Part shown: piece after piece, positions 47,965 through 64,000 of the stretch
How positions within the stretch are numbered: position 1 is the stretch's first letter
How the letters are laid out: each line of letters begins with the position of its first letter
Virus record (IMG/VR): IMGVR_UViG_3300030060_003029
From: an uncultured virus (IMG/VR IMGVR_UViG_3300030060_003029)
Taxonomy: Duplodnaviria > Heunggongvirae > Uroviricota > Caudoviricetes > Crassvirales
Length of the DNA stretch: 64,000 bases
Reading direction: 5' to 3' (one strand)
Position numbers and translations under genes: made by a program
Notes under the pieces: model-generated
What the model saw: only the letters and a program-made list of their open reading frames with translations
The model's database searches: none
Told to the model about the DNA's origin: nothing

Positions 47965-47969
47965 ACAGT

Positions 47970-48036
47970 AAGTTTCATAATGTTTAGTTTTGGGGGGTTT
48001 TGTTTGATTCTGTATTAAACTGCCCCCCATCCTTTT
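47970..48036 (+). ncRNA. Candidate small RNA antisense to start-codon regions
   Basis: Promoter, then an unstructured GUUUCAUAAUGUUUAGUUUU tract, then a GGGGGG/CCCCCC + GUUUGAU/AUUAAAC hairpin and a short U tract; no plausible ORF. Confidence 0.55.
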
Positions 48037-48046
48037 AATTAGTAAT

Positions 48047-48328
48047 ATGAGAGATTATAAAGACGAATATAAGAAGTTTCAATCTAGCCCTAAGCAAAGA
48101 GCTAATAATAGAAAAAGAAAGAGAGATAGGTATAAACTAGAAAAGGGTGGAAAAGTTTCTAAGTTTGATGGAAAAGAAGTTCATCATACTGAGGGCATAA
48201 ACTCAGATAAACTAAGCGTTGTGTCTGCTAAAAAAAATAGAGGTAAAAAAGGAGAAGGAGGGAGAAAGAAAGGTGTTGGACATAATTACCCTAAAAAAAG
48301 AAAGTACGTAAAACGTAATGTCAATTAA
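48047..48328 (+). CDS. Basic HNH-like small protein
   Basis: DGKEVHH...LSVVSAKKNR. Confidence 0.6.
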   Translation: MRDYKDEYKKFQSSPKQRANNRKRKRDRYKLEKGGKVSKFDGKEVHHTEGINSDKLSVVSAKKNRGKKGEGGRKKGVGHNYPKKRKYVKRNVN

Positions 48329-48713
48329 AGAAAAAAAAACAAAGCAGTTAGGGATGAATCCTGGAACTGCTGCCCATAGACTTAGAAAATCTATTTTATT
48401 TAGCTTTGCTAAGAAGTTGGGCTTTAATTGGTGTTACCAATGTGCAACAGAAATAGTAGATATAGATAATTTTACAATAGAACATAAAAAACCTTGGCTA
48501 GATTCTGATAATCCACCTGAGGTTTTTTTTGATCTAGACAATATAGCCTTTTCACATGCTGGTTGTAATTATCGTGCAGCTAGAGTTAAACATGGTATGC
48601 CATGTCCATCAGTTACAGCCTACAGAAAAGGGTGTAGATGTGATGGGTGTAAAAAAGCTAGAGCTGAATATAGAAAGAAAAGAAAAGAATTAAAAGGAAG
48701 AAAAAATGAGTAA
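48318..48713 (+). CDS. HNH endonuclease-like protein with zinc motifs
   Basis: CYQC, IEHKKPW, NIAFSHAGCN, GCRCDGC. Confidence 0.75.
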   Translation: MSIKEKKTKQLGMNPGTAAHRLRKSILFSFAKKLGFNWCYQCATEIVDIDNFTIEHKKPWLDSDNPPEVFFDLDNIAFSHAGCNYRAARVKHGMPCPSVTAYRKGCRCDGCKKARAEYRKKRKELKGRKNE

Positions 48714-48936
48714 ACCAAGTTTTATAGATAAAGCAAAAAGTTTAATAAGAGACACAACAAACCACGTTCTAAATCGTGCACAAAACGTATCTAAAGAAGA
48801 GTATTTGAGGAGAGCTATGGTATGTGATACTTGTGTTCACTTTGTGAAAAAAGATAATATATGTGGTGTTTGTGGTTGCTACATGGATGTAAAAGCTAAA
48901 TGGCAAACCTCAACTTGCCCTAAAGACAAATGGTAA
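48706..48936 (+). CDS. Cys-rich metal-binding small protein (DUF6171-like)
   Basis: CDTC...CGVCGC...CPKDKW. Confidence 0.7.
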   Translation: MSKPSFIDKAKSLIRDTTNHVLNRAQNVSKEEYLRRAMVCDTCVHFVKKDNICGVCGCYMDVKAKWQTSTCPKDKW

Positions 48937-48937
48937 T

Positions 48938-49081
48938 ATGAAAAGAATTGGTTTTGGTTTTCAGTTTTCTAATGGCATAGTATTTGGCATAAGACATTAC
49001 GAGCCAGACAACGTATGTAACTATTATGAAGTTCAGGTATTTTTAGGCTTGATGGTTGTATTTGTAACTATAGAATATTAG
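48938..49081 (+). CDS. Small hypothetical protein, 47 aa (MKRIGFGFQF...), not in ORF track
   Basis: Starts 1 nt after the previous stop and converges with the minus-strand operon. Confidence 0.65.
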   Translation: MKRIGFGFQFSNGIVFGIRHYEPDNVCNYYEVQVFLGLMVVFVTIEY

Positions 49082-49224
49082 AGCTTAGATTTAATAGAAT
49101 TTATTCTACCCTGTATTTCGTCAACCTTAGATTTAAACTTAGATCTCTTCATTCTCTTTCTAAGAATGTTTAACATTGTAAGCTTCTCTCTCTTAGCTTT
49201 ATTTCTTGCATTAGCTTTTCCCAT
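49078..49224 (-). CDS. Small basic protein, 48 aa (MGKANARNKAKREK...), not in ORF track
   Basis: Overlaps the end of the upstream gene; its stop overlaps the convergent gene. Confidence 0.6.
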   Translation of the reverse strand: MGKANARNKAKREKLTMLNILRKRMKRSKFKSKVDEIQGRINSIKSKL

Positions 49225-49558
49225 CTTCTTCTTTTACAGGCTCTAGTGTTACCTCTATATCTGTTTCCCCTTCTGTAATGATACCTCCCTGTCTTGTAAA
49301 TGTTCCTTTCTCTATGTTTACACTACCAACTCCATACTTCTTATTTAATTTTTCAGAAATCTTTTGTTCTTTGTTTCTATTTCCCTTAAGTCTAGCTGCC
49401 ATATCTGACTCCATCTTCTCTAATTCTGATAATCTAGAATTAAGCAATATGCAATCCATTTTTATTTTTCCAAAGTCAACCATCATTCTACTGTTTTCTG
49501 ATCTTATTGCTCTGATTTCTTTTATTTCTTTTTCTTCTAATTTAATTTCTTTTTCCAT
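49211..49558 (-). CDS. Coiled-coil hypothetical protein
   Basis: Heptad pattern and LNKKYGVGSVNIEKGTF motif. Confidence 0.7.
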   Translation of the reverse strand: MEKEIKLEEKEIKEIRAIRSENSRMMVDFGKIKMDCILLNSRLSELEKMESDMAARLKGNRNKEQKISEKLNKKYGVGSVNIEKGTFTRQGGIITEGETDIEVTLEPVKEEDGKS

Positions 49559-49946
49559 TGTCTTTAATTTTATTATTACTTTTTATTTTTTCAATCGAAC
49601 GACCTGCGAAATAGGCTGAGTAAACAACCATGAGCAAGTTTGTATAAATTGGACCATATATTGGGTTCATTTTAAACTCTCCTACATTACCATCAAAAAA
49701 TGATAGAACGACAAGCATGAATGTTAAAAACGCCATCGTAATAGGTCTTATGTTTGCTGGTAACCATCCAGCTTTAGCGTCAGCTTCCCACCTTCTAGTC
49801 ACCTGCTCTTGTGCGTTAGATTCTGCATTAACCAAGATCTCTTTCATCTTGTTTTTTAAAGCTAACTTCTCTTCCTTAGTTGTTACACATTCATCAATAA
49901 TGTTTGATGCATTACCAATAAGTGATTTAAAAATTCCTTGCAACAT
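49542..49946 (-). CDS. Holin (3TM-holin family; start revised to MLQGIFK)
   Basis: VTTKEEKL...VTRRWEADAKAGWLPANIRP, two TM helices, AYFAGRSIEK. Confidence 0.8.
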   Translation of the reverse strand: MLQGIFKSLIGNASNIIDECVTTKEEKLALKNKMKEILVNAESNAQEQVTRRWEADAKAGWLPANIRPITMAFLTFMLVVLSFFDGNVGEFKMNPIYGPIYTNLLMVVYSAYFAGRSIEKIKSNNKIKDNGKRN

Positions 49947-50526
49947 TGTGTTTTGATTTACGTGTATATTTTTTCTTATTCTTATATGGCTTAGACCTAA
50001 GATCCATTCCATTGTTCTTAGCTTCAATATCAGAATCTCTTCTAATCATTTTAGCTATTCTTTTTTTATCTGCCTCTGATATTTTTATTTTCTCCTTAAT
50101 CATATCAATACATTGAAGTATTTGTTTTTTACTTCCAGGCATGTAAAGTTCGTAATTTAAATTGTTTTTTACAAGGTAATGTTTAAATAGTTTCCATTTA
50201 AGGTTAAAAACATCAGATTTCAATCCTTTTACTTCTATTATCCATCCATCTTTCAAGTTAGTAAAGTCAGGCAAGTAGGTAGTGGATCTAATACTACTCA
50301 AAGCTTGATCGAAAACCAACTTGCCCTTCTTTTTTCTTTTCTCTATGCTTACTCCTTCGTATTTAAGCTTATCCAAAAGTACAAATTTTTCTTTTTCATA
50401 ATCAAATTTTATACCTTCTTTTTTTAATTCAGCATAGGTAAAAGCTTCCAGTCTTGACCTAAATTCTATTCCATCAATTTTGGTAGACTGAACATTTTTT
50501 ATTCTACCTTTTTTATTCTTTTTCAT
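49927..50526 (-). CDS. PD-(D/E)XK endonuclease (DUF1064 / T7 endonuclease I-like) with basic C-terminal extension
   Basis: DGIEFRSRLEA, YLPDF, IIEVKG. Confidence 0.8.
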   Translation of the reverse strand: MKKNKKGRIKNVQSTKIDGIEFRSRLEAFTYAELKKEGIKFDYEKEKFVLLDKLKYEGVSIEKRKKKGKLVFDQALSSIRSTTYLPDFTNLKDGWIIEVKGLKSDVFNLKWKLFKHYLVKNNLNYELYMPGSKKQILQCIDMIKEKIKISEADKKRIAKMIRRDSDIEAKNNGMDLRSKPYKNKKKYTRKSKHNVARNF

Positions 50527-50932
50527 AATCTAATATAGGAGTATTTGAAATATATTCCAAGCCCCTCCATTCTCTAGAGCTATCGTACCACCCTGTAGTA
50601 TTATTAAAATTATAAAACAAAACAGCAACGTCTTCATTTATTTCAAGTTTATCTCCAAATGGAACTGCATAGACATGGTAGCCATCAGATCCTTTACCCA
50701 TATATATAAATGGGTAGCTCATACCTGTTTCCCATTGATTCATGTAAACCCTGAATCCTGTTTCTGATATATGTATAAACATTGGTTCAGAATAAATATA
50801 TACATCTCCAGTTTGCTCTCCATTTGACCACTCGTAATCTATGGACTCACTTGATTGATAAACTCCTGTCCTTATTTGCGAAATACCCTGTAACGACAGG
50901 AATAAGATCGCTAAAAAAATCATCTTCTTCAT
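50513..50932 (-). CDS. Exported hypothetical protein
   Basis: Signal peptide MKKMIFLAILFLSLQGISQ. Confidence 0.7.
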   Translation of the reverse strand: MKKMIFLAILFLSLQGISQIRTGVYQSSESIDYEWSNGEQTGDVYIYSEPMFIHISETGFRVYMNQWETGMSYPFIYMGKGSDGYHVYAVPFGDKLEINEDVAVLFYNFNNTTGWYDSSREWRGLEYISNTPILDYEKE

Positions 50933-50963
50933 AATAAATTAAATTAAATTAATACTAAATTAA

Positions 50964-51212
50964 CTACTCAGCTAAAGGCTTCTCCTCTAGTTTCTTTTCT
51001 GTAAGCTTTTTGCTCAATATTATTTCCATAAAATAATCGTAGTGCTTTTTATAATCTTTTTCTGCGTTTTCTGTGTACCTAGCACCAACATACTCATGTA
51101 TGTTTTCTACATATGGAGACCATCCTAAAGCTTCCCATTTTTTTTCAACTTTTCTTTGAGCAAGTTTCGCTGCTAATTGCTCTGCGTGAATTTTAATTGT
51201 TGTATAACACAT
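50964..51212 (-). CDS. Hypothetical protein
   Basis: ORF in minus-strand operon with ATTATG start. Confidence 0.65.
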   Translation of the reverse strand: MCYTTIKIHAEQLAAKLAQRKVEKKWEALGWSPYVENIHEYVGARYTENAEKDYKKHYDYFMEIILSKKLTEKKLEEKPLAE

Positions 51213-51233
51213 AATATATATATTAATTAATAC

Positions 51234-51497
51234 TTAGTGAACGTCATTACTCATTCCCATTTTTTCTCTCCATTTCCACCCAGTTATTTTTACATCAATA
51301 CCTTGAGTAGACTTTATTTGTTTTTTTATACACGAAATTAAATAACTTCTTTTATTAAGTTCTTCAACAGTGTTTCCAACAGAACATGTTACAAATGTTC
51401 CATTGTTTTTTTTTTGAGTACTTTTCTTAACACCCTTAACCACTCTCCAAGTGTTCCATTCATACTCAACTTCTATATGCCATATTTGTTTTTTCAT
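51234..51497 (-). CDS. Hypothetical protein
   Basis: ATGA overlap with upstream gene. Confidence 0.65.
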   Translation of the reverse strand: MKKQIWHIEVEYEWNTWRVVKGVKKSTQKKNNGTFVTCSVGNTVEELNKRSYLISCIKKQIKSTQGIDVKITGWKWREKMGMSNDVH

Positions 51498-51772
51498 TTT
51501 AATAATGTTGCAAAAGCTGGTGTTCCCTCTCCCATGTGTGATCCAAGTATATTGTATTGAAAATACTCTGTAGCCTCTTCATTACTCATCCCATCAGCCT
51601 CTAACAACTCTATTATTTTATTTGTATCATATAGTATAATCGTTTCATTAAAACCAGACCTTTCAACCACCCCTATTATAGCGTCATCAAGTCCATCTGC
51701 AAACAAGGTGTTTTCTGATGATAATTCTTCTACTAATTGCCTTATTGGGAATGGTTCTTTATTTTTATTCAT
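51494..51772 (-). CDS. Conserved phage hypothetical protein
   Basis: FADGLDDAIIGV...EEATEYFQYNILGSHMGEGTP motif. Confidence 0.75.
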   Translation of the reverse strand: MNKNKEPFPIRQLVEELSSENTLFADGLDDAIIGVVERSGFNETIILYDTNKIIELLEADGMSNEEATEYFQYNILGSHMGEGTPAFATLLK

Positions 51773-52224
51773 AGTTTTTTAACTTTTATTTTCCCTATAT
51801 AACATAGGTCTATTGTCTTTACTTTTGTAAACAAATCTTTTGCTCCTGGCCTAGTTGCTAACTCGTAAAAATCCCAACCCTTTACTTTATCTATACACTT
51901 GTCGTGAACCATCTCTTGCAAATCTTCTTTTTTTACCTCGATCCAGTAATCCTCAGTTTCAAAAGCAAATCCATCTGCGTCACCATACAACCAACCCTTC
52001 TTCCCTAATACATTTTTAAATTCTACAAAATGTATATTCTCATCATTTTTTTTAATAGCTTTTACATCTATCTTTATGTTATTTATTTTTAAATCCCAAT
52101 GTTCATTGCAATCCTCTTCTTCTGTGGATAGAGATACATTTTTATATAGTTTAGCGTATTCCTTTTCAGCACGTTTACCTCTAGCCATATCCTTTGCTTT
52201 CTTATGCGAACTCTTGTATCTCAT
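51769..52224 (-). CDS. PD-(D/E)XK-like nuclease
   Basis: EHWD...IDVKA...VEFKNV...GWLYGDADGFAFE. Confidence 0.65.
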   Translation of the reverse strand: MRYKSSHKKAKDMARGKRAEKEYAKLYKNVSLSTEEEDCNEHWDLKINNIKIDVKAIKKNDENIHFVEFKNVLGKKGWLYGDADGFAFETEDYWIEVKKEDLQEMVHDKCIDKVKGWDFYELATRPGAKDLFTKVKTIDLCYIGKIKVKKL

Positions 52225-53509
52225 GGAACTTAGTTAACTCCCTCTGAAATCTCAATCCTAGAACGCCTGTTCCAATATTCCTGCCTTTAGCAAATATAAT
52301 CTCTGCTAAACCATCTGTACTATCACCTTTTTCATCCTGCGTTATACCATAATACTCTGGCCTATAAACTAAGACCACTACATCTGCAGCTTGTTCTATC
52401 TCTCCTGACTCTCTTAAGTCTGCTATTGTTGGTCTGCTCTCTGCTCTTTGACCAACTCCCCTGTTTAATTGAGATAATGCGATGATAGTTATATTAAGTT
52501 CTTTAGCTATATTCTTCAATGCTCTAGCTACCTCAGAAACTTCCTGCTCTCTACTCCTCCCTTTTTTATCGTTAGATACTAGTTGTAGGTAGTCAACCAT
52601 AAATAACTTAACCTTCTTGGTTATAACATATTGTCTTATCCTGTTAAGAAGGTATTTAAGAGAGGAGGAGGAGCACTCATCAACATACAGGGGAACTCTT
52701 TCTATTCTTCCAACACTTTCATGTATTTTGCTTAACTCTGATTGATCCAAAGTTCCTTTCATTATCCACTTATTATCTATTCCTGTGTCAGAAGATATTA
52801 ATCTGCTTAATAACTGCTGAGAACTCATCTCGTAAGAAAACAAGCACGTTGGAGTCTTGCCATAGAACGCACTATTAAAAGCAAAGGCTAAGGCAAGAGA
52901 GGTTTTACCCATAGAACTAGCACCCCCAATGATGACTAGATCAGTCTCTTGCCAGCCTCCTGTAAATTTATCTACACTTTCAAAGCCTGTTGTTATTCCA
53001 TTTAAACCTTTATTGTTTATTTTATGTTCAATGCTCTTTAACAATCCACCTAATTGCTCTGATACATTAACTATTCCATCTTTTGATATGTTTCCTATCT
53101 TTCCAACCTCTCCCTCAACATATTCCAATATGTGAAATATATCATCATCATTAGATAACATCTCTGATATTTTAACATTTAACTCAAGCAACTGTTCTTT
53201 CTTCTTTCTTTCATTCAATATGAGTATACAGGTTAACGCTTGTGTTTGGAGATAAGATTCTTCATTAACCATTGTCGCTAGATCATAAGATAGGTTTTCT
53301 CCTTTCTTTGATATAGTATCCACCAAACTAAGTAAGTCTATTTTTTTATCGTTCTCTAACTCCTCTGATATATATTTATATATCCTTCTGTTTTTAGAAT
53401 CCTCAAATAATTCACTACTTAAAAGAGAGTGATTATTATAATACTCCTGAGGGTTATTTATTATCTTCCCCAACAATGTTCTTTCTATTTGACTATTATC
53501 TGCTGACAT
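52202..53509 (-). CDS. dnaB: Replicative DNA helicase (DnaB family)
   Basis: GASSMGKT, FSYEMS, VDYLQL, LSQLNR, DLRESGEIEQAAD, AKGRN. Confidence 0.97.
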   Translation of the reverse strand: MSADNSQIERTLLGKIINNPQEYYNNHSLLSSELFEDSKNRRIYKYISEELENDKKIDLLSLVDTISKKGENLSYDLATMVNEESYLQTQALTCILILNERKKKEQLLELNVKISEMLSNDDDIFHILEYVEGEVGKIGNISKDGIVNVSEQLGGLLKSIEHKINNKGLNGITTGFESVDKFTGGWQETDLVIIGGASSMGKTSLALAFAFNSAFYGKTPTCLFSYEMSSQQLLSRLISSDTGIDNKWIMKGTLDQSELSKIHESVGRIERVPLYVDECSSSSLKYLLNRIRQYVITKKVKLFMVDYLQLVSNDKKGRSREQEVSEVARALKNIAKELNITIIALSQLNRGVGQRAESRPTIADLRESGEIEQAADVVVLVYRPEYYGITQDEKGDSTDGLAEIIFAKGRNIGTGVLGLRFQRELTKFHEIQEFA

Positions 53510-53993
53510 CTGTAAATTTTGGTGTTACATATTTAATACTGCTTTCATTTGATTTACCTATAACCTCATTTCTCCAAGCTTTTTGATATATCCACGTGCT
53601 TGGGTTTTTTCTATATTGTTTATCAGGTGTAGACTTTACATATAATTCTACCATCTTCAAAGCATCTTTCATGTCTGATATAGATAGCTTTTTCCACTTC
53701 TTTAAACAATCGTCTCTATTTATCTTTTTATCATACCTATCCCAAAAGTCATTAAACATATCCATCTTCTCTGACATTATCTTCTCACTTGGTCTAATTA
53801 TTGCACTATCCATTGTTGCATCTTTAAAAGAACTAGCTATCCTGTCAAAAACATTTTTAGCAAATCCTTCAGATGGGTAAACTTCTTCGTGCTTTCTAGA
53901 AGATATGTAAAAAGTTATCTTCTTTCCATCTAGGTAGTATTGATCTATTTTATTACTCTCTATAAAAGAGTCTGTGTTTATTTTTATTAACAT
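53496..53993 (-). CDS. Replication initiator / replisome-organiser-like protein
   Basis: FNDFWDRYDKK...KWKKL...YRKNPSTWIYQKAW domain; directly upstream of the helicase. Confidence 0.7.
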   Translation of the reverse strand: MLIKINTDSFIESNKIDQYYLDGKKITFYISSRKHEEVYPSEGFAKNVFDRIASSFKDATMDSAIIRPSEKIMSEKMDMFNDFWDRYDKKINRDDCLKKWKKLSISDMKDALKMVELYVKSTPDKQYRKNPSTWIYQKAWRNEVIGKSNESSIKYVTPKFTDVSR

Positions 53994-54014
53994 ATAATCA
54001 AATTATGGTTATTA

Positions 54015-54041
54015 TAGGGGATGCTATGACACACCCCCCAT
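54015..54041 (-). terminator. Hairpin after the SSB gene (terminator or stabiliser)
   Basis: GGGGGTG-TGTCATAG-CATCCCC on the minus strand; weak U tract. Confidence 0.5.
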
Positions 54042-54058
54042 AAAAAACAAATAAAAAA

Positions 54059-54328
54059 TTAAAATGGTAAATCATCCTTTGTTGCTGACGCTGTCTCCTT
54101 TTGAGGTTCAGGTTTAAAATCATTGATCTTAACGTAGTGTGTTTTACCATACTCGTTAGCACCATCTTTATTGGCACCAATAGTTAAGTTAACATACTTC
54201 TTACCCTCGTAAGTATAAACGTGTTCTCCAATCTTATCTAAGTGTAGAGTCATGTTTATAATTGAGCCACCATCATTAAAGGTAACTTCTTTTCCATTTC
54301 CACAAAAAATTGCTTCTTTCTTTTCCAT
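54059..54328 (-). CDS. Putative single-stranded DNA-binding protein
   Basis: GKKYVNLTI...NEYGKTH core and acidic C-terminal DDLPF tail. Confidence 0.75.
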   Translation of the reverse strand: MEKKEAIFCGNGKEVTFNDGGSIINMTLHLDKIGEHVYTYEGKKYVNLTIGANKDGANEYGKTHYVKINDFKPEPQKETASATKDDLPF

Positions 54329-54357
54329 AATAAAATAATTAAATAGTTAGTAAATAG

Positions 54358-54549
54358 TTATATAAATAAATTGTTGTACGCCCATGTGTCATCCACACTC
54401 ATCATTTCAGAGATCAGTCTAATTTCCTGTGCGTTAAACGTATCAGGAGATTCTAACCTCTTTGATATAGTTGGCCTAGACACACCAACGTAGTCTGCTA
54501 TCTCTTGCTGAGATATTTTTCTTGCTCTAAGTTCTGTTTTTAATTTCAT
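54358..54549 (-). CDS. Cro/XRE helix-turn-helix protein
   Basis: ISQQEIADYVGVSRPTISKRL. Confidence 0.9.
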   Translation of the reverse strand: MKLKTELRARKISQQEIADYVGVSRPTISKRLESPDTFNAQEIRLISEMMSVDDTWAYNNLFI

Positions 54550-54560
54550 AGTAATTGTTT

Positions 54561-55325
54561 TTAAAGTATTGATTCAACATAATAGTCATTAATTTCTCTG
54601 TCTTGTTTTATAAAATATGTATCGTACAAGTTTAATAGTTCTTTATATTTAGTTCTTCCAAGTTCCATGAAACCTTCACTTGACATATATATCCCAACAT
54701 CAAATGGTTCTGTTTTTTCTATAACAATAAACCAAAATTCATCAGCCCCAAATCCATCAAGATAAAATGCTGACTGCCTATCATAACCATATTTCAAAGA
54801 TGAACGTCTAAACTCATTTATAACGTGGCTTTGAGTTGTCTTTATATCTACAATAATCTTTCTTCCATTCTCATTTTTTACATAATCTGCCTTACCTTTA
54901 CAATAAACACCAGTGTCTTGATCCTCCCAACAATTAACAATCTCTGCCTTTCCATTAGATAATAGGTTTTTAACTCTTGGTATGGACAATAACTTTTCTC
55001 TCATTTTATACAAAGACTTCTCCTCTCCTTTTGTAATAATAGTTTTATCATTATTATTAAGTTTAAACTCATCCCAAGCCTTACCTCTCCTTGTTCCATC
55101 GTAAGATATAACCTGATCCTTATACTTCTCAGGCTCTAATATATTTTGGTGAAAGGCTCTACCAAATAGTAAAGCGTTAGTATCATCTTGCCCCCATTTT
55201 CTATAATGCTCTAATTTAGCTGGTGAATGTGCCAATTTACCTAACTGAGAATTTGTTATAAAATTCTTGTCACCATAATAAATATTATCACTATCAAAAT
55301 TTTTTATGTATTTAGCGAAATCCAT
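54561..55325 (-). CDS. RecE/exonuclease VIII-like PD-(D/E)XK nuclease (DUF3799-like)
   Basis: FGRAFH...LEP, CKGKAD, IVDIKTT, YGYDRQSAFY, IVIEKTEP. Confidence 0.9.
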   Translation of the reverse strand: MDFAKYIKNFDSDNIYYGDKNFITNSQLGKLAHSPAKLEHYRKWGQDDTNALLFGRAFHQNILEPEKYKDQVISYDGTRRGKAWDEFKLNNNDKTIITKGEEKSLYKMREKLLSIPRVKNLLSNGKAEIVNCWEDQDTGVYCKGKADYVKNENGRKIIVDIKTTQSHVINEFRRSSLKYGYDRQSAFYLDGFGADEFWFIVIEKTEPFDVGIYMSSEGFMELGRTKYKELLNLYDTYFIKQDREINDYYVESIL

Positions 55326-55326
55326 A

Positions 55327-55845
55327 TTATTGCTTTTCTATTTCTAACATTAATAACTTTCTTTGATCCTCAGTCATAGAGTAGCTATCCATTCTTTGCT
55401 TAACAACTAAAGATTCTCCATCTCTGATAGCTTTCATCATGGCATCAAACTGACTACTTGTTAATTTTTTTTTACCACTAGCTTGTTTCTTTTTGGGTAT
55501 CTCTGTTTGTGCTATTGCGTTTGCAACTTCATGTGCTGAAGCAACCTGACTATCTATTCCAATGCCAAAGTTTGCTAATGCCCTACCCCACGCAGACGTT
55601 TCACAAACCTCGACAAAGGATGTTTTGTTAATAAAACTAGCTGATCTAACTTCGTGTGCATGTCCTGTTGCAATTGGAACTCCACCATGTACGATAGTAG
55701 CTTTTATAACACAATGTTCTTCTGTACATTGTATAATTTCTGTTACTAGTGAATGTTCAGGATGATTCTCTCTGAAATACTTGAGTCTTTCGTTAACTTC
55801 AACGTATTCTTTACCTTTAATGTTTATAGTTTTTAGTTTAGTCAT
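55327..55845 (-). CDS. Single-strand annealing recombinase (Rad52/Sak-like)
   Basis: IKGKEYVEVNERL...ATGHA...ETSAWGRALANFGIG; adjacent to exonuclease. Confidence 0.75.
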   Translation of the reverse strand: MTKLKTINIKGKEYVEVNERLKYFRENHPEHSLVTEIIQCTEEHCVIKATIVHGGVPIATGHAHEVRSASFINKTSFVEVCETSAWGRALANFGIGIDSQVASAHEVANAIAQTEIPKKKQASGKKKLTSSQFDAMMKAIRDGESLVVKQRMDSYSMTEDQRKLLMLEIEKQ

Positions 55846-55870
55846 AATTAATTAAATTAAATTGTTTTTA

Positions 55871-55878
55871 CAAATATA
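55871..55878 (-). promoter_or_regulatory. -7 promoter element TATATTTG for the recombination/replication operon
   Basis: CAAATATA on + strand, 25 nt upstream of ATG 55845. Confidence 0.75.
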
Positions 55879-55900
55879 TTAAACTTTCTTTACAATATGC

Positions 55901-56380
55901 TTACTTTAGCATGTATTTTTTCTTAAAATTTATTAACAATCCATGTATTCTTTCTTTCTCTAATTTCTCATTCATCCATAGATCTTTATATCTTCCTATG
56001 GTTTTGTCTTGTTCTTCTATCTTTTTTTTCATATCTATATTTCTAGATGCTTCAATGTCTTCACTATTAACATATAGTCCTAGATGATCCATTGATTTAT
56101 TATAGAAATTTCTATACATGATATTTGTTTTATAATCTATGTCGTGCATACCTCTTGCATGAACAATAGATGCGTGGTTTTTATATCCCAATATATCTCT
56201 CAAGTTGTGGTTAGTATAGTTAAAGTTTCTATATAGTAAATTAACCAATACTTGCCTTGCTATAACCACGTTTGCGTGTCTTGTAGCAGTTCTGTTTCTT
56301 ATTATTTTATCTTCAGGAACATTACAAACTTCAGATACTATATTTATTATATTCTTTTCTAGTATTTCCATGATTCTCAT
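55901..56380 (-). CDS. DnaA C-terminal (domain IV)-like HTH protein with coiled coil
   Basis: NVVIARQVLVNLL...LRDILGYKNHASIVHA parallels DnaA RQIAMYL...GRDHTTVLHA. Confidence 0.75.
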   Translation of the reverse strand: MRIMEILEKNIINIVSEVCNVPEDKIIRNRTATRHANVVIARQVLVNLLYRNFNYTNHNLRDILGYKNHASIVHARGMHDIDYKTNIMYRNFYNKSMDHLGLYVNSEDIEASRNIDMKKKIEEQDKTIGRYKDLWMNEKLEKERIHGLLINFKKKYMLK

Positions 56381-56511
56381 TTTATTTTATTATTTACTTT
56401 AATTGTTATTATTGATGTTATCATTATTATTCCCATAACTATTATTAAATCTAATCCATCAGGAACACATCCCATGTTCGCCAACCAGTAGTCTTGCCAG
56501 TATTGTTTCAT
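56377..56511 (-). CDS. Small membrane protein, 44 aa (MKQYWQDYW...), not in ORF track
   Basis: ATGA overlap with the next gene; one hydrophobic segment. Confidence 0.65.
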   Translation of the reverse strand: MKQYWQDYWLANMGCVPDGLDLIIVMGIIMITSIITIKVNNKIK

Positions 56512-56513
56512 AA

Positions 56514-56750
56514 TTAATCCATTTTATAGTTAAAATCATATTTTAAAACCATAGAGTCCAGTTTCCAACCAATATCCATCATCTCTGTCTTTAGTTCTAC
56601 TATCTCCACATTTAGAGATGTTATCATCATATCTTGAGTTTTATCCTCTACGTTTTTAATTGTTTCGTTAAATGTTTTTATTGTGCCATTAACCATTATT
56701 AGTATAATTATAGTTAAGATCCAACACATAGTAATTGATATTTTTTTCAT
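56514..56750 (-). CDS. Membrane-anchored coiled-coil protein
   Basis: N-terminal TM segment. Confidence 0.65.
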   Translation of the reverse strand: MKKISITMCWILTIIILIMVNGTIKTFNETIKNVEDKTQDMMITSLNVEIVELKTEMMDIGWKLDSMVLKYDFNYKMD

Positions 56751-56959
56751 AATGATTTTTTTTCTAATTGTTTTATATACTCTTTAGCTTCATTCTTAGT
56801 TCTAAATAACTTTCTTACAGGATCTATATTATATATCTCCTCGCTAACATCGTCCCAACAGCTCCATAAAATTTCGTACTTATGTAAATTATAGATCTTG
56901 TCTGTATGTTTAATTACGATATAATAATCATCTCCTTCTTTAAATGGGTATCTTTCCAT
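56747..56959 (-). CDS. Hypothetical early protein
   Basis: YPFKEGDDYY...SCWDDVSEE; ATGA coupling. Confidence 0.7.
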   Translation of the reverse strand: MERYPFKEGDDYYIVIKHTDKIYNLHKYEILWSCWDDVSEEIYNIDPVRKLFRTKNEAKEYIKQLEKKSL

Positions 56960-56961
56960 AA

Positions 56962-57216
56962 CTAATCCTTTTTCTCTTTAAGCCCCATGTCTTCAGCAAA
57001 GTATCTTATACTTTCCCATACTTGATTTGCAGTTCCATCATTATCTAATGCTTGATCTAACACATCCATTGCTTCTGAATCAGTACACTCATAATTAGAT
57101 TGTACATCTTCAATATGATACATAGAATATATGTAATATCCATTTTCCCTTAATAATTCTTTTGCATCTGCGATCTTATCGTTAGTCGCTATAATATCTT
57201 CTGGTAGTTGTTTCAT
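56962..57216 (-). CDS. Hypothetical early protein (start revised to MKQLPED)
   Basis: AATTATG start context; avoids overlap with the 58-aa ORF upstream. Confidence 0.7.
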   Translation of the reverse strand: MKQLPEDIIATNDKIADAKELLRENGYYIYSMYHIEDVQSNYECTDSEAMDVLDQALDNDGTANQVWESIRYFAEDMGLKEKKD

Positions 57217-57235
57217 AATTTTATTCTTTTTTATT

Positions 57236-57412
57236 TTAATGTCTACTATAATTTTCATTTTCATTTAGTTGGACTAGTCTTGTTGCCAATCTTTCCAACA
57301 TTACAATTTCTTTATCAAAATCACTTTCTAAATTTTTTTCCTCAATTAAGTTTATGGTTTTATCCACTAACTCAATTAATGATTCTAAATTATTACTTTG
57401 CCATTTTTCCAT
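57236..57412 (-). CDS. Micro-ORF, 58 aa (MEKWQSNNL...)
   Basis: AAACATTATG start; fills gap. Confidence 0.65.
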   Translation of the reverse strand: MEKWQSNNLESLIELVDKTINLIEEKNLESDFDKEIVMLERLATRLVQLNENENYSRH

Positions 57413-57424
57413 AATGTTTATTTA

Positions 57425-57565
57425 TTAGTCGTTCCAATATGCTTTCGCACAATCATCAGAACAAAATTTATACTCAGTTAATACTTCTCCACAGAACGCA
57501 CATTCTGTTTTGTCTGCGAGATCTTGGTATGGATCAGTCATATTTAAATAATACCACTTCATCAT
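57425..57565 (-). CDS. Zinc-finger micro-protein, 46 aa
   Basis: CAFCGE...FCSDDC. Confidence 0.7.
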   Translation of the reverse strand: MMKWYYLNMTDPYQDLADKTECAFCGEVLTEYKFCSDDCAKAYWND

Positions 57566-57569
57566 AGTT

Positions 57570-57710
57570 TTATTTTTTTCTTGTTAATATATCTATTACA
57601 AAATCTATCTCATCTCTTTCATCGCTACCTATTCTATCAGACCAACCTAACATAGACCTTAATGATTCTATTGCTATCTCTTTGTTTACTTGTTCAATTT
57701 TCTTTTCCAT
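57570..57710 (-). CDS. Micro-ORF, 46 aa (MEKKIEQVNK...)
   Basis: AAAATTATG start; tight packing. Confidence 0.65.
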   Translation of the reverse strand: MEKKIEQVNKEIAIESLRSMLGWSDRIGSDERDEIDFVIDILTRKK

Positions 57711-57714
57711 AATT

Positions 57715-57867
57715 TTATCCCTTTTTTAATTTCTTTAATTTTAATTCTAATCTCTCTATCTCTTTTCTTTTCTCCCAAAATAGATCTAATTCTTTTTTGG
57801 TTATAAATGGAGATATTATTTTTTCAATACCCCATTGTTTTCTTAATTTTTCTAAATCTCTATCCAT
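57715..57867 (-). CDS. Micro-ORF, 50 aa (MDRDLEKLRK...)
   Basis: TAATTATG start; tight packing. Confidence 0.65.
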   Translation of the reverse strand: MDRDLEKLRKQWGIEKIISPFITKKELDLFWEKRKEIERLELKLKKLKKG

Positions 57868-57869
57868 AA

Positions 57870-58268
57870 TTATTTATAAAATTTAATTAACTCTTTTGGG
57901 TTACCCTCAAATACAAACTTTTTCTCATAGTTATCATATATCTTTATTTGTATATCTCCTGTATCATCGCAAACCTCAACGTGATACTCATACTCTTGCC
58001 CCATATTATTATTATTTACTGGAAATATATATATGCCCCCAACTTCTTTTTTCTTTTCAGATATTAATTGTGCAATAAGACAAGCAACGCCACTTGCCTT
58101 TGACATATCTTCCCTGTCTCCTACGCCATTAGTTAGTTTTTTACTATCTAAAAATTCTGCTAATTCACAACCCCAAGCGTAAGGATGTCCATCAAATTGT
58201 TTATACATATTTAATGTTGCTTGTGTATCTCTTTTTTCTTTAATGTATGTAAGTGAACGTGTTCCCAT
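57870..58268 (-). CDS. Conserved phage early protein (MGTRS family)
   Basis: MGTRSLT...MYKQFDGHP...GCELAEFL...EYEY. Confidence 0.75.
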   Translation of the reverse strand: MGTRSLTYIKEKRDTQATLNMYKQFDGHPYAWGCELAEFLDSKKLTNGVGDREDMSKASGVACLIAQLISEKKKEVGGIYIFPVNNNNMGQEYEYHVEVCDDTGDIQIKIYDNYEKKFVFEGNPKELIKFYK

Positions 58269-58307
58269 AATGTTTATTTGTTTAGTTAATGTTTCAGTTT
58301 CTTATTG

Positions 58308-58338
58308 TAAAGTTAATTATTTTTTCGTTAATTGCAAA
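58308..58338 (-). promoter_or_regulatory. Early promoter TTTG-N19-TAACTTTA
   Basis: Bacteroidota -33/-7 architecture with a 19-nt spacer. Confidence 0.7.
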
Positions 58339-58352
58339 CTATTTTGACATAA

Positions 58353-58376
58353 GTTATTAACAATGTTATTAACAAT
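58353..58376. repeat. Tandem 12-mer GTTATTAACAAT x2 (operator-like)
   Basis: Perfect tandem copy just upstream of the -33 element; recurs at 59905-59928 and 62243-62254. Confidence 0.8.
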
Positions 58377-58518
58377 CTTCAAGTTCATCTGCATATTCAC
58401 ACGCTTCATTATATAGATTGCTATCTATATTGCCCACGTAATCTACAAAGTGATTAAACCAAGCTAAATACTTATCTTTTATTTCAATTTGCTTTTCTAA
58501 GTCGTTTCTTTTTTTCAT
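58369..58518 (-). CDS. Micro-ORF, 49 aa (MKKRNDLEK...)
   Basis: ATGA overlap with upstream micro-ORF. Confidence 0.65.
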   Translation of the reverse strand: MKKRNDLEKQIEIKDKYLAWFNHFVDYVGNIDSNLYNEACEYADELEDC

Positions 58519-58646
58519 AGTAATTCTTTTTGTAATTTATTAATTAATTTACCTAATGTTCTGCCTGTATCAGTTTTATCAAACTCGTACTTAACCTCTA
58601 AATTGTAAAGTACCTTAAATAGTTCTGCTTGTGTTTCTTGATTCAT
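58515..58646 (-). CDS. Micro-ORF, 43 aa (MNQETQAEL...)
   Basis: AAAATTATG start; coupled to the next gene. Confidence 0.65.
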   Translation of the reverse strand: MNQETQAELFKVLYNLEVKYEFDKTDTGRTLGKLINKLQKELL

Positions 58647-58650
58647 AATT

Positions 58651-58938
58651 TTATTTTTTTAATTTTAATTCTCTATACTTTTTTGCAATATCTTCCAGAT
58701 TATCTAACTCACTATTACAATACAATCCTAATATATTATTAGTTAGTGTTTCGTATTCATCATACACATCATTATAAAAATCTTGTGCATCTTCATTAAA
58801 TATCATTGTATCAGATTGGTTTTCTTCTGAACTTCCCTCTGTCCATGTTTCTTCCCCAAATCTTTCTTCTGTTATCCTTGTTGCTAACTCATCTATGTAT
58901 TCCATAAATCTTGAATTTTCTATATATATCTTGCTCAT
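58651..58938 (-). CDS. Acidic hypothetical early protein
   Basis: ORF with AAAATTATG start. Confidence 0.7.
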   Translation of the reverse strand: MSKIYIENSRFMEYIDELATRITEERFGEETWTEGSSEENQSDTMIFNEDAQDFYNDVYDEYETLTNNILGLYCNSELDNLEDIAKKYRELKLKK

Positions 58939-58942
58939 AATT

Positions 58943-59158
58943 TTATTTATTTATAGTTATATAATCCTGTTCTATTGTGCTATAAGATCCATTTTCCTCT
59001 TGTTCTAATTTACTTATTGAAACATAAGATCCTTTTTCTGTGCTTAAACTAATTACTTCTTTTGCCCTATCTATTGCCTTTTTTTCTGTAAATTCTATTT
59101 CAGTTTCCAGAACATCACTTTCTATCATATACTCTATTTGATATTGTATTTTTTCCAT
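58943..59158 (-). CDS. Acidic hypothetical early protein
   Basis: ORF with AAAATTATG start. Confidence 0.7.
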   Translation of the reverse strand: MEKIQYQIEYMIESDVLETEIEFTEKKAIDRAKEVISLSTEKGSYVSISKLEQEENGSYSTIEQDYITINK

Positions 59159-59170
59159 AATTTTATTTAT

Positions 59171-59296
59171 TTATTGTTCATTAATTAATCTTTTGCAATC
59201 ACAACCATAGCATAGTATAGTTCCATCATATTGTTCTACATAATCTTCTAATTCTGTTTCAAAACAATTTTCGCAATAATACTTTTCTTTTTCCAT
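59171..59296 (-). CDS. Zinc-finger micro-protein, 41 aa
   Basis: CENC...LCYGC. Confidence 0.65.
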   Translation of the reverse strand: MEKEKYYCENCFETELEDYVEQYDGTILCYGCDCKRLINEQ

Positions 59297-59461
59297 AACT
59301 TTTATTCTTTTTTATTAACACTACTTGACTTTGTCAAATTTTACTTGTACCTTGCCCCTCGTTTTTATTTAGGAGATTATTCAAAAAGAGACTTTTTAAA
59401 TATCTCTCTCAATACTCTCTCTGAATAGTAGATTTGTATTAGGGATAATTATATCCTATTT

Positions 59462-59653
59462 TTATTTAATTTTAATTAATTGATCTTCTGTTAAGTCTTC
59501 GCATAGATATTCTAATGGTTTAAACCTTATAGGTTTTAATTGATACTTTTGTACATTTCCATTGTTATCTAATTTTTCGTTTCCATCTTCATCTACCATA
59601 TAGAATTGAATATCCCATACTGATACTGAATAGTTTTTATTTTCTTTTTCCAT
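59462..59653 (-). CDS. Hypothetical early protein
   Basis: ORF with AAAATTATG start. Confidence 0.7.
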   Translation of the reverse strand: MEKENKNYSVSVWDIQFYMVDEDGNEKLDNNGNVQKYQLKPIRFKPLEYLCEDLTEDQLIKIK

Positions 59654-59849
59654 AATTTTATTTAGTTTTTAAAGTGTCTTTGTAAGGACTTGGTGGACTT
59701 CTTGTTGTTTTTTTACCCCTACCTTCTTTGTTTCACAAGTGGACACTAACATTAATGTTTCTTTATTTTATTTTGTTTTTCTTTCAGATAATTCTTGTTG
59801 TTTTACTTCTGTATTTATTATCATACTCAGAAGGTTAATACTCTTTATA

Positions 59850-59880
59850 CAAATATACTGCTTTTCTTGTTAATGTCAAA
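59850..59880 (-). promoter_or_regulatory. Early promoter TTTG-N19-TATATTTG
   Basis: Consensus Bacteroidota -33/-7 promoter; tandem GwTATTAACAA boxes at 59905-59928. Confidence 0.85.
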
Positions 59881-60046
59881 TTATTTTACATTTATTATTC
59901 CAAAGATATTAACAAAGTTATTAACAATTGTTTTTTTGTTTGGATCAAAACACGCATGTTTTTTTCATTCATGCTTGTCATAGTAATATAATCATAGTAA
60001 TTTTTTTTGGGGAGAACATTCATCTCCCCTTGTGTATAACTAATCA

Positions 60047-60559
60047 TTATGCAGTAATTTTATTTAGTAATCTGTATTGATAATCATAATCATCTAAGTC
60101 ATTATAAAAATTCCCATCTTCATCTTCTTGAACAAAGTCCTCTCTATCGTGTGTGTAAATAGCATTTCCATCTTGATTTGTCCACCTTTCATTAGATTCT
60201 TTGATAGATTCTTTTATCTGTATTTCTTTCTGTTCTATTTCTTCTTCATACATCTTCTTTGTGAATAGTGCAACCTCGTTTACGTTACATAGTATTCCTA
60301 TAGCATAGATTGTGTCATCTATTTCAAATACTTGATATGTTCCATGGTTTTCAAATTCTCCTTCTTCATATTCTCCTACACCAAATACATATCCATCTCC
60401 ATCTTTCCAAACCTTGTCAGCATGTTGTTCGTTGACTCTTTTTTTAGCAAAGTTCATAGCTTTCCTTTTGGTGTCAAATACTTGTATTTCTGTTCCATTG
60501 TTAGAAGAATATCCTTCTCCATTCCAAGTATCTATTACGATATATTTTTTAGTTGTCAT
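60047..60559 (-). CDS. Acidic hypothetical early protein
   Basis: 170-aa ORF with AAAACTATG start. Confidence 0.75.
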   Translation of the reverse strand: MTTKKYIVIDTWNGEGYSSNNGTEIQVFDTKRKAMNFAKKRVNEQHADKVWKDGDGYVFGVGEYEEGEFENHGTYQVFEIDDTIYAIGILCNVNEVALFTKKMYEEEIEQKEIQIKESIKESNERWTNQDGNAIYTHDREDFVQEDEDGNFYNDLDDYDYQYRLLNKITA

Positions 60560-60610
60560 AGTTTTTAGTTTTTTGTAGGGGCAGTAGTTAGCTACCCCTA
60601 ATTAATAATT

Positions 60611-61540
60611 CTATTTATTTAGTATGTACTCTACTGCTTTTTGTGCTTGACTACTCGCATAAACAATCTCTCTTGGGTTGTTTTTTAGGTGCTTTATCCA
60701 ACCATTGATGTATGCTTGACTATTCTTGTCATTATCCTTTGGCTTTAGTCCTAATATGTTAGTTAGAAACATTGCACCTAATTCTGCGACTAATTCCTCT
60801 TGACTATATTTAGTCTTATTAGAGTTTGTAGCGTTCAAAGTCTTTCTGTTTAATAAGTCCTTATGTCCTGTTGAATGAGTCAATTCGTGGAAGAATACTT
60901 TATAATAGTCATCAGATGAAATAAATGTATTTGGACTGCTCATGTTGATTAGATGTTGACTTGGCTTGTAGTGGCAACCAATGTTGTCTCTATGTTCCAA
61001 TGTGGGCTTCTTTCTCATATTATCGTATACTGAATCTGCTTCTTTGATTGACTCAAATATACTACCCTTGATTACTTTTTGAATGTTGTGTTTGTCCTCT
61101 ATGCCCTCAACACAATCAAGATTGAATACTCTAAAATAACTCGCACTCATTGACTTGTCAACATCTTTCATGGTGTAACCCTTTGGAATTACTAAATCTT
61201 CCAATCTACTGCCCTTTAGATATATTCTTTTGCCTTTGCTATCTGTTACAAAATAAGCTACTCTCCAATTGACTACAATGTCTGAAACACTACCTTTTTT
61301 AACTTTGCCACCTAAATTCTTAGCTTGATTAAATGTGATAAATTCTCTGCTTGAGTAGTTATTGAAGTACATTGACATACTCAATAACATTTGATTAATA
61401 CCTTTGTAAATCTTGCCAGTGGTGTGACTTATCGTCATAGTATCTGTGTTACCTGCCCATGATTGAAACCACTCATGCCCACCTTCCTCAAGTCCTTTGA
61501 TTACTTGCTCTGTGATAATTTGATATACATCTTTTTTCAT
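60611..61540 (-). CDS. ardC: ArdC-family antirestriction / ssDNA-binding protein (DUF1738 plus zincin-like domain)
   Basis: VYQIITEQVI, YKGINQMLL, TFNQAKNLGGKVKKG, VFNLD, HELTHSTGH...YSQEELVAELGA. Confidence 0.93.
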   Translation of the reverse strand: MKKDVYQIITEQVIKGLEEGGHEWFQSWAGNTDTMTISHTTGKIYKGINQMLLSMSMYFNNYSSREFITFNQAKNLGGKVKKGSVSDIVVNWRVAYFVTDSKGKRIYLKGSRLEDLVIPKGYTMKDVDKSMSASYFRVFNLDCVEGIEDKHNIQKVIKGSIFESIKEADSVYDNMRKKPTLEHRDNIGCHYKPSQHLINMSSPNTFISSDDYYKVFFHELTHSTGHKDLLNRKTLNATNSNKTKYSQEELVAELGAMFLTNILGLKPKDNDKNSQAYINGWIKHLKNNPREIVYASSQAQKAVEYILNK

Positions 61541-61560
61541 AATAATTAGTTTAGTTTTTT

Positions 61561-61639
61561 AGTAATAGACACCCCTTCTAAGTCTTCCTCTTAGCGTACT
61601 AAGGGGTGTTTCGCTTTTTTAAAGCTCATCAGTATTACT
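61561..61639 (-). ncRNA. Hammerhead ribozyme (type I)
   Basis: Minus strand: AGUAAUA-CUGAUGA-GCUU(UAAAA)AAGC-GAA-ACACCCCUU...AAGGGGUGU-C-UAUUACU; complete core, three stems, GUC cleavage triplet. Confidence 0.93.
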
Positions 61640-61827
61640 TATTCCCATATATAATCATAATACTCATCTACTATAATTAGATTAACCTCTAAAGAATTGT
61701 GTATTTTACTTATGTGGTTAGTTTCCATATTATCATTTTCAATATGTTTAACTAATTTCTTCAAATCCCTTAATAATAATATCTTTGCTTCTTGATATTT
61801 TTTATCTGTATACTTAGCTTCATTCAT
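61639..61827 (-). CDS. Hypothetical early protein
   Basis: ORF with AAACATTATG start; its stop abuts the ribozyme. Confidence 0.7.
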   Translation of the reverse strand: MNEAKYTDKKYQEAKILLLRDLKKLVKHIENDNMETNHISKIHNSLEVNLIIVDEYYDYIWE

Positions 61828-62067: not shown

Positions 62068-62098
62068 TAAAACTACAAAGACTTTTTTAATTTGCAAA
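62068..62098 (-). promoter_or_regulatory. First early promoter TTTG-N19-TAGTTTTA, followed by a 5' hairpin (62041-62061)
   Basis: Same 19-nt spacing as the other two early promoters. Confidence 0.7.
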
Positions 62099-63160: not shown

Positions 63161-63803
63161 TAGCAGTATTTTCTTTTAGACATTCCACCCTTCTTGAATA
63201 TGTTTTTCTTAGGGGGGGTTTTGCCTGTCTTCACATACATCTTTTCCTCTTTAGACTTGAGAACTCCTAACATGTCTCTTTTGTGTTTTTTACTATCCTC
63301 AGCACCTGATCCCTTTAGGTATTTATCTTGTAGAGTACCACCACTTACATATTTCCTTTTCTTTTTTACTACTCCACCTTTTTTCATCACAGCTTCTCCT
63401 GATGTTGATCCACCTCCACCTTCTGCTTGATTAGCTTCTTTAGCAGCTCTTGCTTCATCCTGCTCTAATTGAGACATTCCCTCTCCTTCTTTACCACCTT
63501 CTTCTCCTATGACTTTTATTTTTAATACTTTTCCAACACCTAGCTTACCTTTTCCTGCTTCACCTGACTTTCCTTGTTTCTTTTTACCAAGAAGGGCTAG
63601 GGGTCCCATGGCTATTGTTTGCATTAATCCACCTAAAAAAAATTTTTTTGAATCTTTATTTTTCTTATATCTAGAAACTCTTCCTTTAGTGTTTTTTTCC
63701 ATTTTTGCTTTTCTTTTTTCCCCCTTACTTAATTCTGACCAAGTTGCTGGGGTATCTTTATTTATTCTTTTTGTTGGTCTAAAAGTGTTCTCTCCACCTT
63801 TGT
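63160..63803 (-). CDS. 3' part of the junction-spanning basic protein (true start at position 284)
   Basis: In frame with 1-284; contains FFLGG, MKKGG, YVSGG and FKKGG motifs. Confidence 0.8.
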
Positions 63804-64000
63804 NNNNNNNNNNACCTCCTTCGCCCCAGTTAGCAGCCCCTACTTTTCTACACTTAGCCATAGCACCACTTCTATAGGCAGAGGTCTTAGGGCCATATCT
63901 TGAAACAACTTTATGATAACAAGCATCTTTTGTTGTACCACCACTAACATACTTCCTCTTAGCCATCTTAGCGTCTTGCTTAGGATTATGTTTTTTCTGA
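63605..64000. repeat. Terminal overlap, right copy with 10-N scaffold gap
   Basis: Matches 1-485; the N run at 63804-63813 stands in for 99 bp (200-298). Confidence 0.95.

Follow-up and report, generated by a model that had tools for sequence, protein, structure and literature searches.

The spacer ahead of the gene ardC in the DNA analysed here (the window, a stretch of 64 kb) holds a type I hammerhead ribozyme (Table 1). The best explanation of its position, and one that we consider probable, is that the ribozyme is active and, by cutting RNA independently of the host into units whose leaders are short and uniform, would provide general processing and insulation at the head of an early operon. 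The element is one among many in the spacers of phage early regions, an arrangement known since Perreault 2011 (PMC3088659), and the locus is not a system of a new kind. What is new is the breadth of the hammerhead subfamily to which it belongs, the inversion of a tertiary pair within that subfamily, the early-operon position, and a cultured carrier. The subfamily is widespread in phages and is nearly always missed by the thresholds of Rfam.

The hammerhead and its genomic setting

The window appears to represent a single genome of a tailed phage, ~63.5 kb long and AT-rich (33% GC). Its terminase is nearest, among named records, to those of Bacteroidota phages (Elemovirus, 38%; Pachyviridae and Pervagoviridae, ~33%). 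The nearest record to the window (present as both G001 and G003) is 66% complete. Positions 1-200 repeat sequence near the end of the window (63500-64000), as in a circular or terminally repeated genome, and a run of 10 N bases (63804-63813) falls inside a 268-aa ORF.

A promoter-like site lies in a gene-poor stretch, and a run of small minus-strand genes starts behind it. Because the pattern used has 32 matches in the window, this site is not significant alone. The full TANNTTTG element, which is the Bacteroidetes -7 consensus (PMC6847099), is found at the equivalent place in four relatives (L003, L053, L184, and L185). The first two ORFs of the run match no Pfam or PHROG family, and the ribozyme follows the second of them. 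From this layout, we infer that the transcript carrying the ribozyme is the first early transcript of the phage. The product of ardC consists of an ArdC-N domain and a zincin-like MPTase domain, with an HExxH motif that is invariant in 35 aligned sequences; by these domains and this motif it is a true ArdC homolog, of predicted anti-restriction activity. The ardC RNA may end at a GC-rich hairpin at 60575-60600 (-), which separates ardC from a 170-aa gene and has an A-rich start region behind it. Further Bacteroidota-type promoter-like sites lie in larger gaps of the early region, at 59850-59879 and 58308-58338 (-).

Table 1. Features of the window and of related phages (window coordinates unless an accession is given)
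Feature	Position	Strand	Basis
Type I hammerhead ribozyme, whole element	61561..61639	(-)	descriptor, fold, sub-threshold Rfam match
Stem I, 5' arm	61639-61633	(-)	minus-strand reading
Core CUGAUGA	61626..61632	(-)	sequence pattern
Stem II, 4 bp, with 5-nt loop	61613..61625	(-)	sequence reading, family covariation
Core GAAA	61609..61612	(-)	sequence pattern
Stem III with bulge and inner hairpin	61569..61608	(-)	sequence reading
Predicted cleavage site after C17 (GUC)	61567..61568	(-)	descriptor and sequence
Stem I, 3' arm	61567-61561	(-)	minus-strand reading
Bacteroidota-type promoter-like site, imperfect -7, heading the early operon	62068..62098	(-)	pattern scan
55-aa ORF, first operon gene; in a block absent from L315 and L003	61852..62019	(-)	ORF call
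62-aa ORF; stop abuts stem I, one-base overlap	61639..61827	(-)	ORF call
A-rich ardC leader, 27 nt, no Shine-Dalgarno, A at -3	61541..61567	(-)	sequence
ardC, 309 aa, ATG 61540	60611..61540	(-)	PF08401, PF18818, phrog_7245
Candidate small RNA (47970 RNA), U-rich free 5' part and terminator-like hairpin	47969..48037	(+)	fold, pairing
phi19:3 hammerhead (L310)	NC_021789.1 21766-21820	minus	covariance model
phi19:3 pistol ribozyme (L312), same leftward operon	NC_021789.1 20369-20436	minus	
elemoF copy (L311), stem II broken (two mismatches)	NC_055853.1 16042-16105	minus	covariance model

A sequence-only reading of this DNA had placed a hammerhead here, beginning at the stop codon of the 62-aa ORF and followed by ardC, and its coordinates are borne out by reading the minus strand. 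The core is complete (CUGANGA, GAAA, and NUH, with the G10.1-C11.1 and A15.1-U16.1 pairs), three helices surround it, as judged from the fold and from covariation in relatives, and the topology is that of type I, with stem I open and stems II and III closed by loops. The 4-bp stem II and the long stem III that had been described are likewise present. The arms of stem III (61608-61601 and 61577-61570) form 8 bp, or 9 with A15.1-U16.1, and enclose an inner CUAAG/CUUAG hairpin. U16.1 is at 61569 and is followed by the C at 61568, which we take to be C17 in the hammerhead numbering; a cut at this place agrees with the start codon of ardC in giving the 27-nt leader that had been predicted. The first base of stem I is at the same time the last base of the upstream stop codon. 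Only the length of stem I, given as 7 bp, needs revision: both arms are there, but stem I of the family has 6 bp (positions 2.7 and 1.7 are A and A in 54 of 78 members), and 1.7 is instead the tertiary partner of loop II. In the window copy, this contact is predicted from the bases themselves, between U1.7 (61561) and A 61617, the last base of loop II.

The minimum-energy fold of 61550-61650 is a three-way junction with a z score of -2.69 (2 of 200 shuffles are equally stable). The bare core pattern is not rare, being found in 26 of 100 shuffles, and a scan of five records with it gave mostly noise. The core together with three stems matches once in the window, and any match at all was obtained in just 1 of 150 simulated genomes. 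A search with the Rfam hammerhead models, which had been suggested as a check, finds nothing in the whole window at the gathering score. The best sub-threshold match is the RAGATH-1 hammerhead, RF03152 (31.7 bits against a threshold of 56.3, E 0.012), the 5' hairpin of which is poorly matched by the window copy; RF00008 (Hammerhead_3) scores 16.1 against 48.5, and RF00163 (Hammerhead_1) is not among the matches listed. The window copy has in common with all three models the core and the three-way junction, and passes the threshold of none. An Rfam search of 47500-60600 up to E 1 returned nothing, which argues that the early region contains no second catalogued ribozyme. Comparison of the element with named phages by blastn gave short chance matches only (20 records, none covering 80%).

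The subfamily and its tertiary pair

Two pattern scans of IMG/VR yielded 38 and 61 loci, and a structural descriptor run over the fetched loci recognised 81 distinct type I hammerheads. In an alignment of 50 of these, chosen mostly for a short stem III and with the window copy included, 14 of 17 stem pairs showed changes on both sides, although this covariation is only partly independent evidence because the members had been selected for pairing. The relation between the last base of loop II and position 1.7 is independent, since neither position was part of the search patterns or of the selection rule. Among 78 members (3 of the 81 have a different stem II length and were left out), the two bases are U.A in 51, A.U in 23, and something else in 4 (Fisher p 2e-18, a value inflated by shared ancestry). 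After identical stem II units are merged, the pair is complementary in 57 of 61, and mutual information with the last loop II base peaks at 1.7 (0.79 bits; next, 0.25). L106 and L126 each have the two states on a single contig; the window copy has the minority A.U form.

Two crystal structures of natural hammerheads show a contact between a loop II A and U1.7 (PMC11875169, a source that also questions whether U1.7 is essential). The minimal hammerheads of O'Rourke et al., as presented there, have this contact in Hoogsteen form, and the window copy has the same bases. Unlike those hammerheads, 51 of the 78 subfamily members carry the inverted U/A pair, for which the geometry is a prediction; this natural swap is open to biochemical testing. 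Taken together, the covarying stems and the swap of the tertiary pair are strong indirect evidence of activity, and the window ribozyme is very likely to be active. An inactive relic, or an RNA that misfolds in vivo, is hard to reconcile with the intact core bases, stems, and tertiary pair of the window copy or with the different, equally intact ribozyme that close relatives keep at the same site. This alternative appears very unlikely, even though stem I is AU-rich and weak in long contexts, an alternative hairpin forms transiently inside stem III during synthesis, and a degenerate copy exists in elemoF. The hairpin in stem III was also considered as a kinetic trap acting as a switch; it is predicted in partial transcripts only and has a probability of 0.0 in the full fold.

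Partition-function folds of naked RNA indicate that a coding stretch at 61658..61664 (-) could form a competing helix with the 5' arm of stem I. The predicted pairing of stem I falls from 0.93-0.95 to 0-0.28 once the upstream RNA exceeds ~30 nt, and it is 0.61 with other end points. It might consequently be postulated that the ribozyme is a conditional switch, in which ribosome traffic on the 62-aa ORF melts the competing helix and covers the stem I arm at termination. In a 280-nt context, the competing helix is predicted at 0.43-0.57 as against 0.18-0.32 for stem I, and most members have stop codons in or beside stem I. However, across 89 members the natural upstream sequence does not exceed shuffled sequence in its predicted inhibition (Wilcoxon p 0.63, natural higher in 36 of 89), the fold predictions swing with the end points and omit both Mg2+ and the tertiary pair, and compactness is another explanation for the overlap with stop codons. 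Such a switch is, we think, quite improbable.

Stem III varies freely in the family, from short hairpins to inserts of up to ~90 nt. The copies at L183:1345-1482 and L053:695-830 have a stem III insert of ~90 nt with internal repeats, compared with 39 nt in the window. Members in L184 and L315 pass the RF00163 threshold; across 8 loci, Rfam thresholds caught 1 of ~32 family members. The subfamily, nearly always below these thresholds, now has a working covariance model, which finds 1 copy in the 64-kb window and matches 47 of 49 records, mostly by construction. Of 18 loci from a scan of genome contigs, judged by eye and with the descriptor, L268 is the only complete member. This member (L268/L302) lies between two lipoprotein-like genes of Flavobacterium sp. 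A45, in surroundings without evident phage genes. In L277, a small contig binned as Bdellovibrionales, there are two identical hammerhead half-motifs 255 bp apart with no closing stem I.

The geometry of 94 instances, related phages included, is rather uniform. From the cut to the next ATG, the median is 26 nt (15-35 nt in 66 of 94), and the upstream stop lies no more than 6 nt from the core or inside it in 62 and within 20 nt in 80; in 11, an upstream ORF was not found. A Shine-Dalgarno-like motif occurs in 32 of the 94 leaders, so that hosts with and hosts without use of this signal are probably included. The flanking genes are diverse small ORFs. In the window, phi19:3, and six further genomes (G003, G023, G027, G028, G036, and G039), the ribozymes come after one or more of the first five genes in an early-type operon, gene rank having been read by eye; an exception is G032, where the ribozyme comes after a 363-aa gene.

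Some contigs carry arrays, with 15 model matches in G012, 10 in G021, 6 in G035, and 5 in G027, and in these there is mostly one small gene per ribozyme interval. The arrays L293 (G012:8349-14670) and L295 (G021) consist of 10-15 type I hammerheads with Shine-Dalgarno leaders, many of them cut after GUA. In L294 (G027:30500-37000), hammerheads follow each of the first five genes, and three pistol ribozymes fill the next spacers. Circularisation by tandem type I ribozymes is a property of retrozymes. By analogy, tandem copies here could free single-gene RNAs that re-ligate into stable circular mRNAs, given the type I topology, the similar stem I of neighbours, and intervals of mostly one gene. 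Cross-pairing of neighbouring stem I arms is perfect in 15 of 30 tandem pairs; the other 15 have 1-3 mismatches, and the window has a single copy. In addition, circular or spliced products were sought in Perreault 2011 (PMC3088659), and none were found in the work described there. We regard circular mRNAs as highly improbable.

The covariance model matches two of seven named related phages, phi19:3 and elemoF, and gives no match in the other five. A small plus-strand ORF is annotated over the elemoF copy. In the cultured Cellulophaga phage phi19:3, an intact hammerhead follows gene two of a divergent operon, with a pistol ribozyme five genes beyond it; neither is among the features annotated there in NC_021789.1. 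The occurrence of pistol ribozymes in neighbouring slots (three in G027, one in phi19:3) suggests that it is cleavage as such that is selected.

Relation of the ribozyme to ardC

The sequence-only reading had proposed that self-processing of the first early transcript sets the dosage or stability of ArdC, and that the released leader is then a target of the 47970 RNA. To judge the linkage, 162 ardC loci were surveyed (the best 80 of 518, the best 80 of 574, and 3 loci from another scan, with one locus shared). A hammerhead is present within the fetched flank in 21, every one on the ardC strand, and an association with the neighbourhood of ardC consequently exists. The position before ardC is another matter. 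Among 144 loci with at least 150 nt upstream, the descriptor places a ribozyme directly 5' of ardC in 4, one of which is the window's own sequence; the covariance model adds a fifth, L212. Directly 3' of ardC, a ribozyme occurs in 9 loci, as against these 5.

The close relatives point in the same direction. In the set of close ArdC homologs with readable upstream DNA (n=7), ardC is preceded by one or two small genes and a ribozyme in the window, L183 (ArdC 94% identical), and L053 (91%), whereas in L003 (76%), L184 (79%), L315 (74%), and L185 (60%) ardC is first behind the promoter with no preceding ribozyme. A different hammerhead lies further downstream in L184 and L315, and in L315 the promoter and leader of the window are joined straight to the ATG of ardC. 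In a tree of ArdC sequences, the rows with the ribozyme first make up a single clade (3 rows, 100/99) nested among ardC-first forms, which argues for a single gain before ardC, together with the inserted upstream genes. The states before and after genes were inserted in front of ardC can be compared in a natural series made up of the window, L315, and L183. A fixed 5' position across homologs, as expected of an ardC-specific cis-regulatory RNA, is not what is found. The conserved ardC-hammerhead linkage for which a survey of related phages had been suggested did not emerge, and the view of the ribozyme as a device specific to ardC is not supported. As for self-processing of the first transcript, the ribozyme is very probably active there, because the family covaries and a promoter-like site is found at the same place in relatives, and it would give ardC a new 5' end; what lacks support is a role dedicated to ardC.

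The 47970 RNA itself deserves separate consideration. A TANNTTTG element at 47957-47964 (+) precedes it, and the element is kept in G002 and, with a compensatory change, in G004; it has similar counterparts in the viral contigs L318, L320, and L322. The alternative that it is just the opposite strand of a normal start region, one with a 12-aa ORF, was rejected, as the ORF start is lost in G004. The retention there of the U-rich part and the hairpin makes a small RNA plausible. The ardC leader was said to be among its best predicted targets, and this holds: when 81 start regions are ordered by their pairing with the free 5' part, it comes second, and a different seed choice puts it fifth of 82. 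However, the best 8 of 81 predicted targets are all leaders of early genes, and predicted pairing is stronger for 21 early genes than for 60 others (medians of -8.8 and -6.35 kcal/mol, p 4e-6). It may be that the 47970 RNA is made late and turns off the translation of early genes or of the host.

What favours a combined circuit, with a ribozyme dedicated to ArdC dosage and a released leader silenced by the 47970 RNA, is this rank, the frequency of ribozymes near ardC, the independent 5' cases in L139, L212, and L136, and the ardA gene that lies directly downstream of a hammerhead in several strains (Perreault 2011, PMC3088659). Nevertheless, the pairing site in the ardC leader is outside stem I, and the predicted binding energy is -15.0 kcal/mol both before and after cleavage. 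Together with the class-wide preference for early leaders and with G004, which has the 47970 element and no family ribozyme, this indicates that ribozyme and 47970 element are independent. Since, moreover, the ribozyme is missing before ardC in 4 of the 7 close relatives and lies 3' more often than 5', we give such a circuit little credence.

When the window is compared with L183 and L053, the upstream gene and stems II and III change jointly, and the cut site, leader, and ardC stay the same. Such an exchange has led to another hypothesis, that the element is mainly a 3' module and a recombination joint of small mobile gene cassettes; early genes would be exchanged through its conserved segments, and cleavage would finish the upstream mRNA rather than serve ardC. 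Stem II or III is shared in 11 of 20 member pairs that have only the upstream gene homologous, in 2 of 7 with only the downstream gene homologous, and in 151 of 2821 with neither. A precedent is offered by the PeSL cassettes of T4-type phages, which consist of a promoter and a terminator (PMC2839356). Like these cassettes as described, the ribozymes are repeated intergenic modules of variable early regions and possible joints for exchange; they differ in being ribozymes and in that exchange is deduced here from few cases. On the other hand, recombination would need neither the tertiary pair nor an intact core, yet both are kept, and pistol ribozymes unrelated in sequence fill like slots. The pair counts are small and not independent, and a role as a joint would not conflict with operon-head processing. 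A cassette joint as the main explanation is unlikely.

Proposed processing at the operon head and known systems

In the model that we favour, general processing at the operon head, the RNA would fold during transcription, aided by the contact between the loop II A and U1.7, and the ribozyme would cut the first early polycistronic transcript after C17 with no need of host enzymes. On the upstream piece, with its two small genes, the 3' end would be a cyclic phosphate and would stay structured through stems II and III. The downstream piece would carry a 5'-OH, and its leader, short, A-rich, and unstructured, would resemble that of a gene that is first behind a promoter. The head of the early operon changes fast, and the ribozyme would then serve it generally as a spacer or insulator; ardC, displaced by the inserted gene block, would regain a first-gene-like 5' end, and any effect on ArdC level would be a by-product of this general role.

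With 27 nt, the ardC leader is close to the mean leader of F. johnsoniae (33 nt), and its A at -3 is favourable (PMC6847099). The predicted gain in accessibility of the start region upon cleavage is small (mean unpaired, 0.64 to 0.76), and the notion that the ribozyme compensates for displacement rests, given one gain on the ArdC tree, on n = 1. Against a general role, most early genes of the window are without a ribozyme, there being 1 model match in 64 kb, the elemoF copy is broken, and one member sits between Flavobacterium genes that do not look like those of a phage. A 5'-OH can protect an RNA from 5'-monophosphate-dependent decay. Such an end can also lead to decay, as for glmS (PMC6765202). 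The effect on ArdC, on balance, leans slightly toward stabilising and evening out.

Processing of this kind has been proposed before. In Perreault 2011 (PMC3088659), hammerheads are reported to flank single genes or short blocks in prophages, and the processing of long transcripts into operon- or gene-length mRNAs is suggested, with cleavage shown for three arrays. One of its examples is a triple array around ardA, itself an anti-restriction gene, for which activity was seen both in vitro and in E. coli. Another is the hammerhead of a halovirus, found 13 nt ahead of an early gene whose mapped 5' end is adjacent to the site of cleavage. Like the elements described there, the window ribozyme is intergenic, on the strand of its flanking phage genes, and member of a group in which the identity of those genes varies; the tandem copies of that report have their counterpart in other members of the subfamily, the window having one copy. 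It differs from them, as far as they are described, in being of type I, in its stem I of 6 bp, in having one loop II/1.7 pair and no pseudoknot seen, and in belonging to a marine Bacteroidota-type phage with ardC rather than ardA. The open-licence literature gave no account of the subfamily or of a link between ardC and hammerheads, and the alignments of Perreault 2011 may contain members.

Other systems follow a similar logic. RNase III cuts the early transcript of T7 around gene 0.3, and insulators of the RiboJ type cut upstream of a gene to leave a fixed short leader. The same principle of a cut before the gene would apply here, with no protein enzyme and with a 5'-OH rather than a 5'-phosphate in the one comparison, and in a natural setting in the other. 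The review of Weinberg et al. (2019; PMC6765202) notes that different self-cleaving classes fill the same neighbourhoods and suggests processing of polycistronic RNA, and it describes the biological role of ribozymes near phage genes as largely elusive. In contrast to the neighbourhoods presented there, an early-operon-head rule and a cultured carrier of both a hammerhead and a pistol can be given here. These observations bear on the question raised by that review of why self-cleaving ribozymes crowd phage genes.

A more far-reaching proposal, which we hold to be doubtful, is that this compact, uncatalogued subfamily with its inverted pair would provide marine phages with portable insulator joints. 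By recombination in the conserved segments, each joint would admit a new small gene to the head of the early operon, cleavage would reset the 5' end and leader of whichever gene is displaced downstream, and a separate late small RNA would afterwards silence the uniform early leaders as a class; if true, it would explain the crowding of ribozymes in phage early regions. With phi19:3, a cultured phage-host pair is at hand that makes the function of the ribozymes testable.
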